Shown in pieces: positions 1 through 59,327 of a stretch of DNA of 64,000 nt. A model generated the notes under the pieces. That model was given only the letters and a program-made list of their open reading frames with translations, did no database searches and was not told the DNA's origin. Each line of letters starts with the position of its first letter. Position 1 is the stretch's first letter. Source of the DNA: Lingula anatina (Eukaryota > Animalia > Brachiopoda); contig CM120640.1 of the NCBI GenBank assembly GCA_051362555.1, positions 71,464,788 through 71,528,787 on the forward strand, given 5' to 3'. The position numbers and the translations under genes were made by a program.

Positions 1-183
1 GTGCATAGTTCATTGGATCCAGTCCATGCTAGATGATCCACCAAACTCAAAGATGACAGATTAACGTATGCAAAATTATCCTGTCATGTATGTAAATGAT
101 ACCAGATTTTAAAGTAACGATATGAAACATACCTCATCATCTCTACCACACTTTATCTAACTTAAAACTTTTTATTGTTTTAG

Positions 184-2658
184 AGGAATCACATGACAAA
201 GAAGAGAGCAAGGCTGATGGTAAAGATGAAGATGAGGATGGCACAGAGGAGGGCAAGACACCATCTTTTACAGTACTTCTCCACGGCAGTCTTAAAGTTG
301 AGGGCATGGTAGCGCTGGTGGAGGTCAGGTAAGCAGTGCTGTAGACCAGATGTAGAATACTGCTCATATAACATAACACATAGGGACCATTTCCAGACCC
401 TACCTAACTAACCGTGGATCGATCTATCTCCAAGGAGATTCTAGTTAAATTGCAGTCAACTTTTAAAAGGTCTGTCACACCTACTGAAGTGCTAAGAGTA
501 ATTAATTATCATTTAGCAGCTTCAGTAGGCGTGCCACACATCTAAGCTGCTTAAACTGAAAGCAATGTAGCGAGAAACACCTTGGAGATGGATCGATCCT
601 GTTAGATCGTTTTAGGCATGGAAACCAAGTCTTTAGCGAAATGGTATTTTATCAAAATTCCATTGCATATTGTTGAAAGATTAATAATACATTTATACCT
701 ATCCTTCTGAGCGTTTTTGCGTGGGCAGACTTAGATTTGACAGTAGTTCTGTGTTCATTTATTGATGTACATTGTTAATTTTCCTCCTAAATTTTTTGTC
801 AGCTTTATCGTCATTTGAAATGTTATAGCCTGAATTTATTGTGTAATGACATTGTTTCTGCAATATTTTTATTGAATTTTCTTTCACCAGTTTTTAGAGG
901 ATTGTTTTTTAAAAATCTTGATGTATAAATAATTTTAATAACTTTTATTTGTGCTTATTTATTTGTTTGGTGACTCTAATAATCTTATCATTATTTTAAC
1001 ATTATTAGTGAAGACTGGTATGGGATGCTATATATATTATTTCAGTGACTTTAATAAGCTAATTATTATTTTAACATTTTCAGTGAGGACTGGTATGGGA
1101 TGCTGTACTCTTGGGCTGACAGTAAGAAGAAATCAAATCTCATGTTGTCCATTTTTGAACCTGGTAAGTCAACGTGTGGAAAGCTTGAAATTGTTGCATT
1201 TTATCTGTATCACATCTATTAAAAAACAAGTAGTTTAAAAACGTTGGAAGGGTTTAGAAAGCTGCAGCTGAGTTATTTTTTACAACACAAAAGGAGAAGT
1301 TATTTAATCAGAAATTTGAAATAAGATCAGATTTATATATTATAGGAAGTATCTCAAATGCTTCTTGGATGTTTTTTTATTTTATTAGTACCACCAGCGT
1401 GTACGCTGGCGGTACTCATGGTTTTAGTCCCGACCCGTCTCGTACAGCTCCGCCGGCTCCTGCGGCTCCGCCGGCTCCTGCAGCTCCGCCGGCTCCGCAG
1501 TCGGGCGCCGGAAACAAGTCACCGTTACCGCTTCTCCTCCTAGACCGCAAGGACCTGTGTCCCCATCTCTTGGATTTAGGTCACATATAATCTCAACTTG
1601 AACACCCTGGTTTTTCTGTCTCCGTCGGTGCATTGGCCTGGGCGTGACGCTTGTTGAAATGCACCCTTGTCAAAATTTTTGAAAATTCAATGCTAAATAT
1701 CTCCCAAACCAAAGGAATTATGGGAAAAATTACTACAGAAGTCTGACCGAAAGTCATATGTGGAGATTCCAAATATGCCCTTGGATTTGACTTTTGACCT
1801 TTTTTTCAAGGTCAAACAAGCCAAAATTTTCTAAAAATGGGAATTTTCTGTAAAAAAATATTTGTTTGTGCTAATTTTTGGAAACTACGCAGCCCTAAGC
1901 TCTCCTGTTATAGTGAGGGGTTACCATTGGTGACTCCTTTCATCTTTGAGAGTTTGGGGTCAATCAGTGCAGTTTCACGGGAGAAGCAGCCATTAGATAC
2001 CAAAACTGAAAACTCGCTCTAAATCTGGAACGGTAAATGCCAGAGACCTCTTTTTTATTGCATTTTGTAGAGCTTGTTAAGTGCAATACTGGGGGTGGTG
2101 TCCATTTTTTTGTTTTTGATATGGTTTAGGCGTTGCCCTATATCAAAAATTACAACATCGCAACATTCAGTGGGGAAAATGTGAAATACTCCAAAATTAG
2201 CAGAGATACGCCCATAGTTACTATTGAACTTGAATAGGAAGTCATATACTGGCAATCTTACTGTGACCTTGAAATTGTCCTTTGACCTACTATTTATGAT
2301 TAACTGCACTTTGCATGTTTCCTGGCCTTCATATCTCCAAAATTGGCAAAGAAATGCCCATAGCTACTATTGAACTTCTGTAGGAAGTCATATACTAGTA
2401 CTGTGACCTTGAAATTGACCTTTGACCTACTTTTTCACCACAAACTGAACTCTGCATATTTTCTTGCCCCTCATATCTTCAAAACTAGCAGAGATCTGCC
2501 TACTGTTGTCCCAAGGTTTTCTCTTTTGTCAGCAAATATGCAATACTGATAACACATTTCAAGGAAAACCAATAGGTTTAGAAAATCACAGGAGTCATCA
2601 GTGTTAGGAAAATACGGCTCAAATTGAACATCTGCTTGATTTGAACAGTTATGTTTGT

Positions 2659-2740
<82 letters not shown>

Positions 2741-3885
2741 TTGCATATTTTGAGAACTCTTTTTATTGCATTTTATAGAGCTTGTCAAGCACAAGACTGG
2801 TGGTGGTGTTCATTTTTTGGGGGTGGAGTTTCCATGAGAATGTGCTTACTCCAGCTGGTGGTACAATATCCAGAGGCGGTATCGCCTCTCTGATCCTCTA
2901 GTTTTATTTTAGGGACAGATGTTCTCCCTTGGTTAGGAGAATTGGACCATCTGTCTGCCCACTCCTCGACGCTATTTCCTGACCCACCTTACGGATTTGA
3001 AGACAACCGTACGCCATTCCCCGTCAGACCTCAGGACAGACGCAGCTATGCACAGAACTGTGTCGTGTGGATCAAGGCAACAGGACTACAGGTAACACAA
3101 ATAACTAGGACAGTTGTTAATATACACATGCATTTTAAACAATTTTGTACAATTGAGCTATAGGTAAAAACTAGATAAAATGATGTGAAAAAGATGGGTG
3201 TTTTCAATATAGAAATAGCTGTTATCTATTAAAAGCTGTTATAACCTGTATTTTTGTTCTTACATTGATAATTTCCAATTTTTTCCTTATAAGCAAAGCT
3301 ATACCATATTTATGCCAGTGTTTTTGAAAAAGTTAACAATCACTGTCAAAACCCAATTTCAGTCTGACATACAGAAGATTCTGCGCCATGCCCGTAAGCT
3401 GCCAGAGAAACAGCAGCAGTTCTACAAGGTACGCTTGACTTGGGAATGTTTTACTTCAAATTTGGAGGTGTCAGAAAAAATGGTGAAAGTTACATGGGGT
3501 TGATATGTATGTGAAGTTTTGGATTGTCAGTTTAAAAAAATGATAAGCTGCTTGTTTTGATTGTATGGCGTTATTATAGTGTATATAATGTTTTTGATCT
3601 ATTTTTTTTGAATTTCATTTTATGTAGCCAGCAAAACATGTACATAATTGCTTTTTGTTTTAGGAGTTGAACAGGGTCCGTAAAGCAGCTCTTTCCTTAG
3701 GGTTTATGGAACTTCTAGAAGCCCTGTCCACCATGTTGGACCGTGAGTGTACTCTGTTGCCAGGAACAGCCCATCCAGACGCTGCTCTCCAGTTATCACA
3801 TGCAGCAAACTCTTTAAGGTCGGACAATGCAAAGGAATACAGTCAAAATATTCTCCCTCTGAGTACTAACTTCAGCGGTGAATAG
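184..3885 (+). CDS. INTS14: Integrator complex subunit 14 (VWA9), 3' portion; 5' exons lie upstream of the window
   Basis: Phase-consistent GT-AG exons 184-328, 1084-1163, 2913-3091, 3363-3428, 3664-3885 (stop). Translation contains TPSFTVLLHGSLKVEGMVALV, WYGMLYSWADSKKKSNLMLSIFEPG, RSYAQNCVVWIK, DIQKILRHARKLPEKQQQFYKELNRVRKAAL and LLPGTAHPDAALQL, which I recognise as the INTS14 C-terminal region. Confidence 0.92.
381..633. mobile_element. Foldback/MITE-like palindromic element, family B copy 1 (INTS14 intron)
   Basis: Long imperfect palindrome (gatcgatctatctccaagg ... ccttggagatggatcgatc; cctactgaag ... cttcagtagg). Colinear with the copy at 30568-30820 and related to 19472-19700 and 51641-51857. 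Confidence 0.7.
1381..2903 (+). mobile_element. Non-autonomous Helentron-associated (HINE/DINE-1-like) element, family A copy 1
   Basis: 5' subterminal repeat tattagtaccaccagc with an adjacent inverted copy (gctggcggtac), a ccgccggctcc microrepeat, ~145-bp core repeats (tgaccttgaaattgacctttgacct), a 3' subterminal repeat gctggtggtacaata, a hairpin agaggcggtatcgcctct and terminal CTAGT in a T-rich site. Homologous to 53092-55437 and 23701-23817. Confidence 0.75.
2663..2742. repeat. (TA)n microsatellite followed by poly-T
   Basis: Directly visible. Confidence 0.95.
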
Positions 3886-4767: not shown

Positions 4768-4859
4768 GGGTTTTTATTATTAAACTATCTTCCACTGAAT
4801 CAAGTTCCACATCAACCACCACGGTCCGCTAGTCAAGTAATGTCCAGCAGTATACAAAG

Positions 4860-4925
4860 CCCAGTTCACACTTTTCCAGTTCACACTTTTCCAGTTCACT
4901 CTTGTCCAGTTCACACTTGTCCAGC
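4860..4925. repeat. ~15-bp tandem repeat (ccagttcacactttt), ~4 copies
   Basis: Directly visible. Confidence 0.8.
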
Positions 4926-5032
4926 CTGATGAGGTGGGTGTACACCTTTCAATATCCCCAGCATTGCTAGCTCAGGGCAGGGTATATTGTACCGTCCACA
5001 TCCAGGGGGTCCATCCGGCAGCCATGACACCC

Positions 5033-5272
5033 TCAGCCATTGCCGTCTCGCTGGTTATTGACTCGATACTCTTTGTCATACATGTCTGCAATGGCCCTCA
5101 AAGTCAGGCCAATCTCTATCATAGAGCGTCTCTGCTCTTCATTGGGCTCTGTGTTGTTATTGTTTGCTCTGTGGCGGTAGACCACTGGTTCCATAACCTG
5201 GTCTAGATTCTGAGGGAGATTGGTTGCTGGAAAACCTCTGTTCCGATCTTCATCTGGCATGTTGACAGTCAT
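5033..5272 (-). CDS. Candidate BH3-only pro-apoptotic protein, 79 aa (PUMA/BIM-like BH3 motif)
   Basis: EIGLTLRAIADMYDKEY aligns without gaps to PUMA BH3 EIGAQLRRMADDLNAQY. The remainder is polar and low-complexity. A strong acceptor (ttttttatttccag) puts the exon start at 5309, and a consensus donor GAG/GTAAGT at 6337 defines a non-coding exon 1 next to the MCL1-like promoter. Confidence 0.7.
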   Translation of the reverse strand: MTVNMPDEDRNRGFPATNLPQNLDQVMEPVVYRHRANNNNTEPNEEQRRSMIEIGLTLRAIADMYDKEYRVNNQRDGNG

Positions 5273-5869
5273 TTCCTATATTGTGGTTTTTTTCTGCATA
5301 TATCGCCAACTGGAAATAAAAAAGTAAAACTTAAGCAAGGCTGGGATTAAAGGAATACCATATTTGCAATTACATTTGTAACTGTCCAAGTCTTTTCTGT
5401 CTTCATGTCCTGTAAAACTACTTGTATTCTCCCTAATTCAGACCTTAATGACTTTAAATGATGAATTAACCCATCAAATAAAAGTATCTGACATGCATAG
5501 TTTCCCTCTGAAATGTACAGGTGACTTGAGAAGTGGAAACATTTGGTCACACAGTAAGAAAATAAAATTTAACTGAAATGGACAAAACAATGAATTCCAA
5601 GTGCAAGGACCAATAATATATGATTGTGAATAGGTGAATATTTTTCTCTCTTGTGGAAAATTCAATTGGGGTTGATAACTTGCTTTCAATATCATGGATT
5701 ATATACTAGTACCATTTCATAGTGAGAACTACATGTACATGTTAAGTACCCAAAAGAATGTTTATTCTTAGGGGTACATATACCAGGGCACGTAAATGTT
5801 TGTAAACCTGTATGTTTTTAGTACTGTACAGTCCAATGTGGACCTTTGTCAAATTACTGGATTATAATC

Positions 5870-5872
<3 letters not shown>

Positions 5873-5912
<40 letters not shown>
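5873..5912. repeat. (TA)n microsatellite
   Basis: Directly visible. Confidence 0.95.
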
Positions 5913-5917
<5 letters not shown>

Positions 5918-6419
5918 CATGTTATATATCAAGTTTAGCAAATAAATGACAAAAAAGTATCATTATTCTGAATTTTATTGAAAAGATATACATGTAAATT
6001 ACTATAGTACCATTGGCACAGGTATACTACTGTAGAATCAACATACTAGTCAATCGAGAAGTCTGAATTTGTTGGTAGGTATAAGGGATAAGCATAACAA
6101 ATTGTAAAATTAACTTGCTAAGGTAATTAATCAACAGATTAAAACAAAATGGCGCGAATAACGTATTACTAATACTGACTTCTCAGTAAACAGGTAATTA
6201 ATCAACCAATGTATTAATAAGCTACCGCAGTACCTGTAAAATTAAAAAACTATGGATGTTTCTAAGATTACATCTACAAACAAAATTTAAAGAAAGTAAA
6301 AAAGGTGGAAACTGTGGGTATTTTTATCTAACTTACCTCCCAGATCGCCCTGCTTCTTTATTGGTTTCTCTTCTGCTAATCCTGAAACGTCCTAGACTTA
6401 AAAACTTCTCCACTTCCAC

Positions 6420-6530
6420 CTTGTCGTTCCCACGTATGGCACGTGTCCTCTGGTCAACCAATCAGAGCACCAAAAAGCCATGACGTCATGCACTCGCTGC
6501 TATTTTCGTCGTTGACTTCATATTTAGTGT
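6420..6530. promoter_or_regulatory. Putative bidirectional promoter shared by the BH3-only and MCL1-like genes
   Basis: CpG-rich gap between divergent 5' ends with E-box CACGTG (~6440), CCAAT box (~6458) and a perfect palindromic CRE ATGACGTCAT (6480-6489). Confidence 0.6.
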
Positions 6531-6626
6531 TTGCCCAAACACCTTCTCCGAAATTTTTCGCTTTCGTCACTACGGATATCTACGGACGGAAGGCCTAGAA
6601 GTTCACTTTTCGGAGACCATCTGGAG

Positions 6627-7873
6627 ATGAACGAGAATGGAGTGGAACCATCGGTGAGGAGTAGGGGGACGATGAAGGCCGACATTCAAGAGAATTTTTA
6701 CAACAACAACAACAAAATGGCCGGCAAAGTCCGTGATCAGGGGTTGAACGGGTTGATGAACAACCGTGGCACTCAAACAGGCGAAGAACATCTACCTTCA
6801 TCCGCCATAGCAAAAACAGCCAAAGAGATAGCCCATGATGTTTTGTTCTGGACCGTTGGATATAATAACTCAAAACCAAACGATGCTTATTCAAAAACGA
6901 TGAGGCGTCTGGTAACGGAAATGCTGGAAAAGCACAAAATAACCTTTAATGGGATGATGAACAAACTTGATTTATCAGAGCAAAACGGCGAAGAAACTGT
7001 TAATGGTTGTTTGGAACACATATTTACCGACCACGAAGTCAACTGGGGGCGAGTTGTCACTGTGTACGCGTTTGGATCTCGATTGATGAAACATTGTGAA
7101 GAAAACAAAATGGACGCGTTGATGGGCAAACTTCCTGATTATGTTGGTGAATATGTTGCGACCAAACTTGGCCCCTGGATACATAAACAAGGTGGCTGGG
7201 TATGTATTTAAGATTTTGTTGTTAATATTACTTTATAAGAGATCTTGATTGTATTTTTAAAAGTAGAAATACATACTAATGATAACAAATATTGAAAAAT
7301 GTATGCAGTTGAAAGTCTACCTTTGGATTTAACTTGTGAATCTTTTTAATAAGGACAATTACAATTTACTTATGACAAATATATGACTTAAAATTGGTAA
7401 AAAAAACTTTTTGGGTTGGGGGGGGGGAGGGTAATGTATTTGTCTAATTGACCTTACTGGAGGGCAATCCTGTGTAAAGTTATGTGATATTAGTCACTGT
7501 AAGGAATGCATACCTTTGGAACTAGTGCCGCCTGACTACCAAGGTGTTGATTTATGATTGCCAGAAACCTTGGATCCTATCCAGATATTGTTCATTTATA
7601 TCTAACCACAAATAGTGTCAAGTTACAGGTTCTTAGAATTTTTCCTATTGTATTAAGAGTAACTATCACTCAGTATGATGTATTCTCTCTATGTTAAATA
7701 TTTTGCCATTGAGTGTATGAAGTTGACTGTATTGTGACCACTTCTCTCCTCTCTAGGACACCTTTGTAGCTTCTTTTCCTGACAAGAATCAGATGGAGAA
7801 TGGGATCTGGAAGGGTTTGCTGGTCACAGCCCTGGGTTTGGGTACTCTAGCCACCATGGTCGCAGTGCGGTGA
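6627..7873 (+). CDS. MCL1: Anti-apoptotic Bcl-2 family protein, MCL1-like
   Basis: Exons 6627-7199 and 7757-7873, with a phase-0 intron in BH2 GGW/DTF as in other Bcl-2 family genes. TMRRLVTEMLEKHKITFNGMMNKL resembles MCL1 TLRRVGDGVQRNHETAFQGMLRKL; BH1 IFTDHEVNWGRVVTVYAFG; BH2 WIHKQGGWDTF; C-terminal TM IWKGLLVTALGLGTLATMVAVR. Family is secure; orthology to MCL1 versus A1/BCL-B is inference. Confidence 0.85.
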
Positions 7874-10510
7874 CTAGCACTGAAAGCAACAAGATGAAGA
7901 ATTCAACCAGGAAGCCTGCATAAATGGCTTCATATGAGAGAGAAATACAGACCCATTTTTGAAAAAAAATGTGAAGGAAATGTGATTGTTGTAACTTGTT
8001 GATTAGAAATAAAAGAGTAACAATTCATATTTGCGATAAGAACACACAAACTGAGGGAGACTTAAAATGATGGAAAATGACAGACTGGTCAGTGTAAGTT
8101 TTCTACAACAATCGGGAAAATGGGGTAAGCTTTTGCTTCCCTGTCAAAAGGCAGCATATGGATAAATAAAATGAGCAGCTATTCTCTCTTCTTCAGCCCC
8201 CTTATGCTTGCGCTGTCCAGGAAAAGCCATGAGTCTTCCTTTAATGATGATAATTTTGGTCACAGCAGTAGTTCTTTAATTTCATTTTGTGTCACAGTAT
8301 AGGTATCCTAGCATAACAGTTGCGTGTAACTAGATCATGATTCTGGTTGTATGGTTCTTTGACTCATCGGTTCCCATGGTCACAAAATAGCCATGGCATA
8401 ACAAAACCTGGGGTGATGGTGCTTGGTCATCAGCTCAGTGAGGTGACAGTGCAGGGAAGGTTTAAAGAATTGAATATTGATTCACTAGGCTGAGTTTTTG
8501 GTTAAAATTGACCATCCTCAAAAATTGAATGTTTTAGTGTTGAGTCATCATCACCCCCCCCCCCCCCCCCCCCTCACTGAGCTGAGGTCAGTTCTGATTT
8601 CTGTGATTCACAATTTGTGTTCAATTTAATATACATTTGGTGTCAGCAATCATCGTTTAAAACATTACACTAAAACAGAAATTTTGTTATTTTATTTGAT
8701 TTTATTGGATAAATAAATATTGTTTAATAAACAATTTATATCTGGGTTATTATTCCAGTGGTATTTACTCTTTGTCGTAATTTCTAAAGCAAGTTGGCTG
8801 TGTGCCAGTGACGTCAGCGCTGTTGCACCACAAGCGATGTAGGGGACAAATATGGCGGTGAGAAGAACTATAGCTTCATTATTTTACACACACTAATGAA
8901 TAACTGAGAAGGCTGTTCTGGCAAGCCTTCAATACTTTTTTGTCTGAGGGGAGACGGCTGAAAATATTTAGGGTCAATGAAGACAATTTCTTGTATATCT
9001 CTATATTATATATCTTTATTCATAAGAAGGTTTTTTTTGTAGAAGGATTAAGTGACATCTTTTATGGCTTCATCTCCAAGTTAAAATTAGCCTCAGTTTA
9101 ATCAAGGAGGTTTATGAGATGTAACAGTTTTAAAGGTCGATAGTAAATGTTACTTAATTGGCTTCAGCATCGCCAACTAGAGTTATCACTTTGATGTATT
9201 TTTAGAGAGAGAATAGTTCATTGCGTCACCTGGGAAAGTTTATCGCACCTACTGCTGTCACGAGAGACTCTCGACCAGAGAAAAATAAGGGTATACGCAA
9301 ACGTCCTTTAATAAGTATTTTAAGTTGTACTCAAAAACACCGCTTATGAAACATTAAAACTACAGTTTTGAGTTGAAATCGAAATCTGTGTATATACTGA
9401 GCAAAAAAGTTAACACCCCATGTGAATTATATATATGTCACATGTACTGGGCTACGGACAGTAATCTGCAGATATATATATAACCATAAAGCTGATAATT
9501 TTTTTCTTAAAGTATTGAGTGGGGCGTTTATTTTATTTTATTTATTAATGTGTTTTATTTAATTATTATTATTTTTTGCTCAGTGTGCATTTTTTGCTAT
9601 ATGCATATTTACCGGTGCCGAGTTGATATTTGACGCACAGTCGTTTACGAAGTTACAACTAGTGCTAAGACAAAGAGTAATCATTACCTTCTGAAATCAG
9701 GGGCTTCTAAAAAATTACAAAATTCAAGAATGTGATACAAAAATTTTGTCACAGATTACAAACGCATCCTGTGGTGAGAGTGTAAAAGATTATGACAAAA
9801 ATCAAAATACAAGAAAAAAATCCGAGGATGATGTTAACAAACAATGTATAGATAATGTTGAAGGGTGAACCCATCATCGTAACGCACTCGTGATTTCTGG
9901 ACTGAGATCTACTTGTTTGAAAAGAATACAAGTAATAAAGTAAAACAGGCAAATCAGACCTACCCCTTCGCAGGACCTTACACGAAAGACAGCTATGAAT
10001 ACAGACCAAACAAAAGAATAATAATAATAATAATAATGATAACACAAATTAATAAACAAATATAATTCGTTTTACAAAACATATTTATAAACGTTTTGAT
10101 ACAGTGTTTTGGTTGACAAATGAGGTGAAATTGACCTTTGATTTTAGGAGAAAAGCATCGAAATCGCGTGTGATTTTTGTCTGTTATGTGAAGATTTAAT
10201 CAATCCATATTTCTGTACCTGATTTTACAGTATATTTGAAAAATGAGGCTTTAGTTTCAAGCCGATGCAGACCAGAGTTAAAATTATGTACCCGTTTGTA
10301 TATTTATAATGTGTACATATATGGAAATGAAGACGCTGACCCTCGTTCGACCTGAAGTTCAGGTCAGGAAATCTAACTTGATGTTCAGAGATATATACTC
10401 TTTTCCACAAATCAAATTAATGTGCATTTACCTTTATTTTAAGTAAAAACAGCAATGTTGCTTGCCGAAAGGAAAAATATTGGGAGGAAATTCCAAACCG
10501 TTCCCCTCTG

Positions 10511-11670: not shown

Positions 11671-18265
<6,595 letters not shown>

Positions 18266-20561: not shown

Positions 20562-37779
<17,218 letters not shown>

Positions 37780-52382: not shown

Positions 52383-59327
<6,945 letters not shown>

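Follow-up and report, generated by a model that had tools for sequence, protein, structure and literature searches.

Two genes lie head to head in the stretch of the Lingula anatina genome analysed here, a window of 64,000 nt. On the minus strand, a 79-aa reading frame (5033..5272) makes up the single coding exon of a candidate BH3-only gene, and is covered by RNA in 8 of 8 runs. The first-pass annotation had placed a 17-residue BH3 motif within this frame, and the motif does lie at 5116-5066 (residues 53-69), with I54, G55, L58, I61, A62, D63, Y65 and Y69. The pattern I54-G55-x-x-L58-x-x-I61-A62-D63-x-Y65 includes the conserved leucine, the small residue, the aspartate and the four hydrophobic positions; a tyrosine at the fourth of these is less usual. 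The strict BH3 pattern is matched only once within the six frames of the 64 kb, by the 79-aa frame itself. According to 40 order-3 Markov simulations, 0.175 matches are expected per window, and 0.025 if the distal aromatic residue is included. A looser pattern occurs at chance level (3 found, 4.5 expected). Two other coding assignments were discarded. A plus-strand frame of 60 aa overlapping the candidate (5024-5206) shows start loss and an internal stop in one RNA run (X8), and no plus-strand RNA in stranded runs; a longer BH3 protein starting in the upstream exon finds no ATG there, and meets an in-frame stop.

The minus-strand transcript is spliced. A non-coding first exon (6337..6425, the 5' end being approximate), devoid of ATG up to 6480, is separated by a GT-AG intron of 1027 nt (5310..6336) from a second exon made of a residual 5' UTR (5273..5309), the coding region and a 3' UTR (4773..5032). 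The nearest AATAAA is at 4778-4773, and read depth reaches the edge of the examined stretch, at 4800. In the DNA, the donor GAG/GTAAGT is found at 6337, and the acceptor TTTCCAG at 5310. Nine RNA runs bear the species label, and eight of them were examined; the reads come from other animals carrying the same label, and haplotypes are mostly 90-99% like the window. The 6337-5309 junction was detected in all eight runs (10, 33, 50, 29, and 15, 19, 28, 43 reads), and in the five stranded runs it maps on the strand opposite to the reads of the neighbouring MCL1-like gene. RNA evidence thus confirms the spliced non-coding first exon anticipated in the annotation, and the donor is 290 nt from the ATG of the partner (6337 to 6627), in keeping with the proposed distance of less than 300 bp. 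Minus-strand depth drops past about 6407; reads are few up to 6425, and traces extend to 6500. The 5' UTR in exon 2 holds an upstream frame of seven codons (5299-5276) in a weak start context. This small frame is polymorphic, with indels at 5280-5287 and the ATG lost in 30 of 57 reads of run X8, and is not conserved among the RNA variants.

The partner is encoded by the plus strand. Exon 1 (6529..7199, coding from 6627) specifies the BH3-BH1-BH2 region and its NWGR; an intron of 557 nt (7200..7756), in phase 0 after the GGW of BH2, precedes exon 2 (7757..8730), in which the coding sequence extends to 7873, through the last helix and the membrane anchor, and is followed by a 3' UTR to about 8710-8730. 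Depth and read ends set the 3' end at 8709, and AATAAA occurs at 8712 and 8726. The 7199-7757 junction falls within the stretch examined for four runs, and all four show it (98, 237, 214 and 168 reads). The protein matches the Pfam Bcl-2 family (PF00452, E 1.2e-27), has a C-terminal hydrophobic segment (at residue 210, hydropathy 1.67), and shares 90% identity with the L. anatina Mcl-1 homolog XP_013403667.1, the sole match among 144 candidates. The domain, the NWGR, the second exon at 7757-7873 and the hydrophobic C-terminus bear out the earlier assignment of a divergent MCL1-like neighbour, and the gene is likely pro-survival. The best PDB match is human MCL1 (3e-14), followed by BCL-xL (3e-12), and these E-values weakly favour a putative orthology to vertebrate MCL1. 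Vertebrate MCL1 carries a long PEST N-terminus, which is absent from the Lingula partner. An MCL1 clade has been recovered in molluscs and close relatives (PMC11463336), and the gene resembles this lophotrochozoan MCL1-like group, and XP_013403667.1, in having two exons, the NWGR and a C-terminal anchor.

Between the two transcripts depth is near zero, and E-box, CCAAT and CRE motifs are found there. Minus-strand 5' read ends occur at about 6410-6425, plus-strand ends pile up at 6529-6551, and the divergent start sites that had been predicted are consequently about 100-130 nt apart. The sites were derived from RNA-seq ends, not from CAGE, and are only approximate because the reads belong to other individuals. 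The pair fits the definition of a bidirectional promoter, which is divergent starts less than 1 kb apart, and the distance from ATG to ATG is 1355 nt. The inferred promoter (6426..6528) comprises CACGTG (6440-6445), CCAAT (6458-6462) and TGACGTCA (6481-6488), and the gap of 100-130 bases likely acts as one promoter for both genes. The whole region is compact, the exons of INTS14 terminating at a distance of about 1.1 kb. The same samples contain transcripts from both genes, on opposite strands. The partner RNA is in excess, with 4-10 times more junction reads than the BH3 gene, and the ratio of BH3 gene to partner junctions varies from 0.10 to 0.23 between runs. Over 4 runs, the levels of the two transcripts do not co-vary significantly (Spearman 0.8, p 0.2).

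The 79-aa product is a predicted BH3-only protein, plausibly disordered except for one BH3 helix. An AlphaFold2 single-sequence model features one helix at residues 45-77 and no structure before residue 45; pLDDT is 83-94 over residues 41-70, and about 52 over residues 1-44, a low value which, as no alignment entered the model, does not prove disorder. A hydrophobic tail is lacking (maximal 19-residue hydropathy 0.15). Pfam gave no match, and no other BH motif or Bcl-2 fold was found. A word-index search among database proteins of 43-139 aa retrieved neither the upstream gene nor any relative of it. Used as query with phmmer against PDB, the frame hit no BH3 peptide; the only match, the NEMO coiled coil (E 0.01), was taken as chance. 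In the Atlas the protein neighbours BAK fragment, BMF, PXT1, BIM and NOXA clusters (top score 0.86), a closeness to be regarded only as a lead. The register of the motif had been likened to that of PUMA. A specific relationship to PUMA is not borne out, given the lack of a PDB BH3 match by phmmer and a score of 0.76 for the PUMA Atlas cluster. Traits of PUMA (BBC3) orthology were missing as well in Pfam, and paired p53 half-sites with up to 3 mismatches were not found in 5273-6630.

Small size, predicted disorder, a single BH3 helix and the lack of other BH motifs liken the Lingula protein to NOXA/PMAIP1, PUMA/BBC3, BMF and nematode EGL-1, to none of which sequence homology was detected in Pfam, PDB and word-index searches. 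The frame complies with the minimal BH3 rule L-X3-(G/A/S)-D (PMC10107002), and its length falls within the 54-198 residues spanned by BH3-only proteins (PMC7022251). Unlike known short members, it has a tyrosine at the fourth hydrophobic position, lacks a membrane tail, and shares its promoter region with a Bcl-2 gene. The BH3 resides in the last exon, whereas the penultimate exon contains it in vertebrate members, Bid excepted (PMC7022251).

Sequence variants from RNA reads indicate that the motif region is kept. The analysis covers 40 of 42 difference rows, and 20 fall in the BH3 frame. Codons 1-46 host 10 amino-acid changes and 2 silent ones, codons 47-70, which span the motif, 1 amino-acid change (K67R) and 4 silent ones. 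Selection on the motif, for which a test had been proposed, is supported by this contrast of 1:4 versus 10:2 (Fisher p 0.028), which counts as moderate evidence because the regions were delimited once the positions were known, and matched DNA was lacking. Codons 71-79 contain one silent change, one amino-acid change and one stop, at codon 75, the latter carried by 18 of 67 reads in run X8; this allele and K67R show tolerance downstream of the BH3 core. No indel is listed within the frame, and neither its start codon nor its stop codon varies, while four indel rows fall in the adjacent UTR. On sequence grounds, purifying constraint on the BH3 motif appears moderately supported.

Loci with the same layout occur in anthozoans. 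A full HMMER search with the Lingula partner gave 1058 matches, and the best 25 of the 150 listed were aligned; with the profile built from this 25-row alignment, 80 of 106 confirmed metagenome loci were taken. The strict BH3 pattern applied to them was slightly widened, its class being fixed beforehand. In the 80 loci, seven matches were upstream in opposite orientation, one upstream in the same orientation, and none downstream (111 kb upstream and 151 kb downstream were covered). The chance of an upstream-opposite BH3 frame is about 0.002 per locus. All seven anthozoan loci with at least 1400 nt of upstream sequence (L026-L031 and L034) have the BH3 frame head to head with the Bcl-2 gene. 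The frames encode 90-97 aa, have no intron in the coding part, and their ATG is 1084-1124 nt from that of the partner. L026-L031 are regarded as stony-coral loci because their partner is about 78% identical to Acropora millepora AmBclWC, over exon 1 (hand count on a supplement row of PMC4715348). L034 is assigned to a second anthozoan lineage solely on its likeness; its BH3 frame is 41% alike to those of L026-L031, which are 89-91% alike to each other, and the partners are 70% identical. The seven loci correspond to two lineages, and to one ancestral event.

The coral frame belongs to a family for which 39 protein clusters, all of them unnamed, were retrieved from 561 candidates. G, Q, L, G and D of the motif are invariant in 31 of 31 aligned rows. 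In the C-terminal half, pN (0.012-0.035) is lower than pS (0.10-0.26) in all six pairs, which are non-independent. Searched against PDB, the coral profile has two BH3 peptides as best matches, at E 0.04-1, among chance matches. The last exon of the coral partner carries a similar membrane anchor. Imperfectly paired p53 sites occur once, in L034, and none was found in the other six loci. In the window, as in all 7 coral loci, CACGTG followed by CCAAT precedes the partner, and the phase-0 intron after the GW of BH2 is common to all 57 genomic partners, including the coral ones. Shared intron and promoter motifs are common features, and constitute weak evidence for ancestry. Lingula and coral BH3 frames also have in common a run of Asn before the motif, and a short tail ending in Gly.

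The distribution is uneven. Conservation of a BH3 frame upstream of MCL1-like genes in relatives had been predicted; it holds for the anthozoan loci, and was not seen at 22 other animal loci. In all, 22 of the 29 loci with at least 1400 nt upstream, out of 57 genomic ones, have no BH3 frame, and most are uninformative. Fifteen of the 22 make up one annelid-like group, so labelled from likeness, and the promoter may be off the contig, because in 11 of 11 checked a splice acceptor precedes the matched exon. Two more are long CARD-type or related fusion paralogs. Promoter loss is no excuse for L021, L023, L067 and L079, where no upstream BH3 frame was found; the negative loci that include a first exon comprise L015, L021 and L023, and L015 sits among other reading frames and a TnpB-like fragment. 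Viral contigs gave no match. Prokaryote genomes yielded one stray animal-like contig (L081), which carries a different paralog, and no BH3 frame among its listed frames.

The reading that we favour, with a probability of about 0.6, is that the locus hosts a spliced and expressed gene for a predicted BH3-only protein of 79 residues, divergent from an MCL1-like gene and likely driven by the same promoter, and that the layout shared with corals was likely inherited from the cnidarian-bilaterian ancestor. A convergent origin, less probable by far, would imply that brachiopods and corals each placed an unrelated BH3-only gene beside a different pro-survival paralog, the shared promoter serving to buffer a lethal gene. 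The sequences are compatible with it. The coral profile scores the Lingula frame 8.4 bits (E 1.8), the best of 2155 segments of the window, a score no better than that of chance segments of other loci, and lower than the 13-17.6 bits given to unrelated BH3 peptides; with this profile no homology of coral and brachiopod frames was detected beyond the motif. The partners differ in their best PDB match, the coral one being nearest to BCL-xL (1.8e-26), not MCL1, and the supplement row of PMC4715348 links it to BclWC of Acropora and not to AmMcl1-like, a separate gene of that coral. In a quick tree of 77 rows, without outgroup, coral genes join other rows (support 93), and the brachiopod gene resides in an open fork; the tree leaves out 73 of 150 protein matches and at least 69 of 80 loci, and 41 of its 74 inner branches are open. 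Moreover, BH3-only proteins have been called polyphyletic (PMC11463336, PMC10107002), and several bilaterian relatives lack the upstream frame. Against all this, it is less parsimonious that the same orientation, a spacing of 1.1-1.4 kb and a size of 79-97 aa arose twice, along with the single coding exon, the Asn run and the Gly-ending tail. Disordered proteins lose detectable homology fast, and the frames of the two coral lineages have already diverged widely. Inheritance of the head-to-head layout from the cnidarian-bilaterian ancestor is hence the likely scenario.

It is still more doubtful that the BH3-only gene, though real, simply lies in a gene-dense region, is regulated largely apart from its neighbour, and targets mainly other Bcl-2 members or BAK/BAX. 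The compactness of the region, with the INTS14 exons close by, the varying junction ratio, and the presence of several Bcl-2 family genes in Lingula (PMC11463336) would be in line with such an accident of position. The starts, however, are separated by little more than 100 nt, and two anthozoan lineages, with partners 70% identical, would very probably not share the arrangement unless selection or a regulatory tie had kept it. Least credible, indeed highly improbable, is the notion that a long non-coding transcript of the promoter-upstream type accounts for the minus-strand RNA, the motif being incidental. Lack of a Pfam match and of protein relatives of 43-139 aa, an N-terminus evolving nearly neutrally, the stop allele at codon 75 and the upstream frame are what such a transcript would show; yet frame, start and stop persist beside a UTR that has acquired indels, most changes in the motif are silent, the motif is expected only 0.025-0.175 times per window, and a conserved coding counterpart exists in corals.

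If the gene pair is what we propose, its mode of action may be sketched from the chemistry of the family. A BH3 helix binds the pro-survival groove via four hydrophobic residues and an Asp-Arg pair (PMC7022251). Similarly, residues 45-77 of the Lingula protein, which is predicted to be disordered, would become helical on docking into a pro-survival Bcl-2 groove, plausibly that of the neighbouring MCL1-like gene product; L58 would enter a hydrophobic pocket and D63 would face the arginine of NWGR, thus freeing BAK/BAX. Through the CRE, CCAAT and E-box, incoming signals would increase expression of the two genes in parallel. Cells would survive as long as the antidote is in excess, and die when its translation or stability drops, or translation of the trigger rises. 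Loci from which both a killer and a protector derive are known, as bacterial type II toxin-antitoxin modules and the MCL1-S and BCL-xS splice forms of vertebrates illustrate, and BID and BCL2L13 are adjacent, in a tail-to-tail orientation. The first-pass annotation had envisaged a cassette with toxin-antitoxin logic. Of the traits of such modules, only a surplus of RNA from the partner was seen, amounting to 4-10 fold in junction reads; evidence of a labile antidote, of autoregulation or of mobility did not emerge. In contrast to toxin-antitoxin modules, the Lingula pair consists of two separate divergent genes, and no operon was seen. The term holds as an analogy only, and the pair would serve as an internal rheostat, not as a selfish module.

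Small BH3-only proteins are of a known kind; what is new is the head-to-head arrangement, found in two phyla. No report of a BH3-only gene head to head with a pro-survival gene was retrieved from the literature searched, which left out bioRxiv supplements and most subscription journals. A putative proximity of zebrafish noxa to mcl1a gained no support from the literature search, and was not used. Invertebrate BH3-only candidates have been collected by Suraweera et al. 2022, who searched NCBI by BLAST, taking human Bim, Bad and Bmf as queries (PMC8998228), and because the legend of Fig. 5 in that work lists a Lingula candidate, we make no claim to the first brachiopod or coral BH3-only gene. 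Linkage of these candidates to a Bcl-2 gene is not mentioned in the available part of PMC8998228, nor is a gene neighbouring AmBclWC in that of PMC4715348, which describes AmBclWC as a predicted anti-apoptotic protein, and the coral BH3-only repertoire as uncharacterised and an important unsolved item. In oysters and molluscs, BH3-only genes were reported to be missing (PMC5550854). Sequence cannot trace such genes back to their origin. A conserved position would offer an orthology marker independent of sequence, and the position rule a simple way to find BH3-only genes in any animal genome. We would lay even odds that one bidirectional promoter has served both a BH3-only gene and a pro-survival Bcl-2 gene ever since corals and bilaterians had their last common ancestor, the pair being the ancestral regulatory unit of intrinsic apoptosis, and that scanning 1-2 kb upstream of MCL1-like and BclWC-like genes, on the opposite strand, will reveal the BH3-only genes said to be missing in molluscs and uncharacterised in corals. 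The pair provides a concrete trigger and protector for studies of coral stress, bleaching and spiralian cell death and, if ancient, the pairing points to where hard-to-find death triggers hide in other animals.

The BH3 gene, the candidate trigger on the minus strand, lies tail to tail with the gene for Integrator subunit 14, whose exons occupy positions 126-3885 of the plus strand (Pfam IntS14_b-barrel and IntS14_C), its stop codon being about 1.1 kb from the INTS14 exon end. On the other side, just beyond the 3' end of the MCL1-like gene, a second TGACGTCA and one AAATATGGCG motif are found on the plus strand at 8809-8862, suggesting a further promoter past that gene. Elsewhere in the window, fragments at 14438-15372 (plus strand) resemble a REEP/Yop1-type gene, and a Pfam scan of them gave no match. 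What resembles a Tip60-like Tudor-knot exon resides on the minus strand at 58139-58447 (Pfam E 2.6e-5), and four long tandem repeat arrays (16500-17760, 27700-29200, 36400-36900 and 57300-57950) yield spurious open frames.

Among the metagenome loci retrieved with Bcl-2-family proteins, L055 (2757-3284) and L056 carry a Bcl-2-like gene lacking introns, with a membrane anchor of the same kind. The contig is gene-dense, has ORFs that look phosphatase-like and RNase III-like, and probably belongs to a large DNA virus. In L015 an MCL1-like gene has a TnpB/Cas12f-like zinc-finger fragment (2702-3082; Pfam E 1e-18) directly adjoining its last exon, and long ORFs without introns are present upstream on the opposite strand. 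L081, a 2.1-kb contig with an animal-like Bcl-2 gene, was binned in a bacterial genome, probably host contamination. CARD and Bcl-2 domains are fused in a single long exon in L022 (3790-4887; Pfam CARD 1e-14, Bcl-2 2e-23); long forms related to it occur in L039 and L042, and CARD was not detected in the stretch of L042 scanned.

In the 5' untranslated region of the BH3 gene, a 7-codon uORF (minus strand, 5276-5299) ends 3 nt 5' of the main ATG. In RNA reads from other haplotypes its frame is shifted or its ATG lost. Translation of the trigger could be tuned by this uORF.
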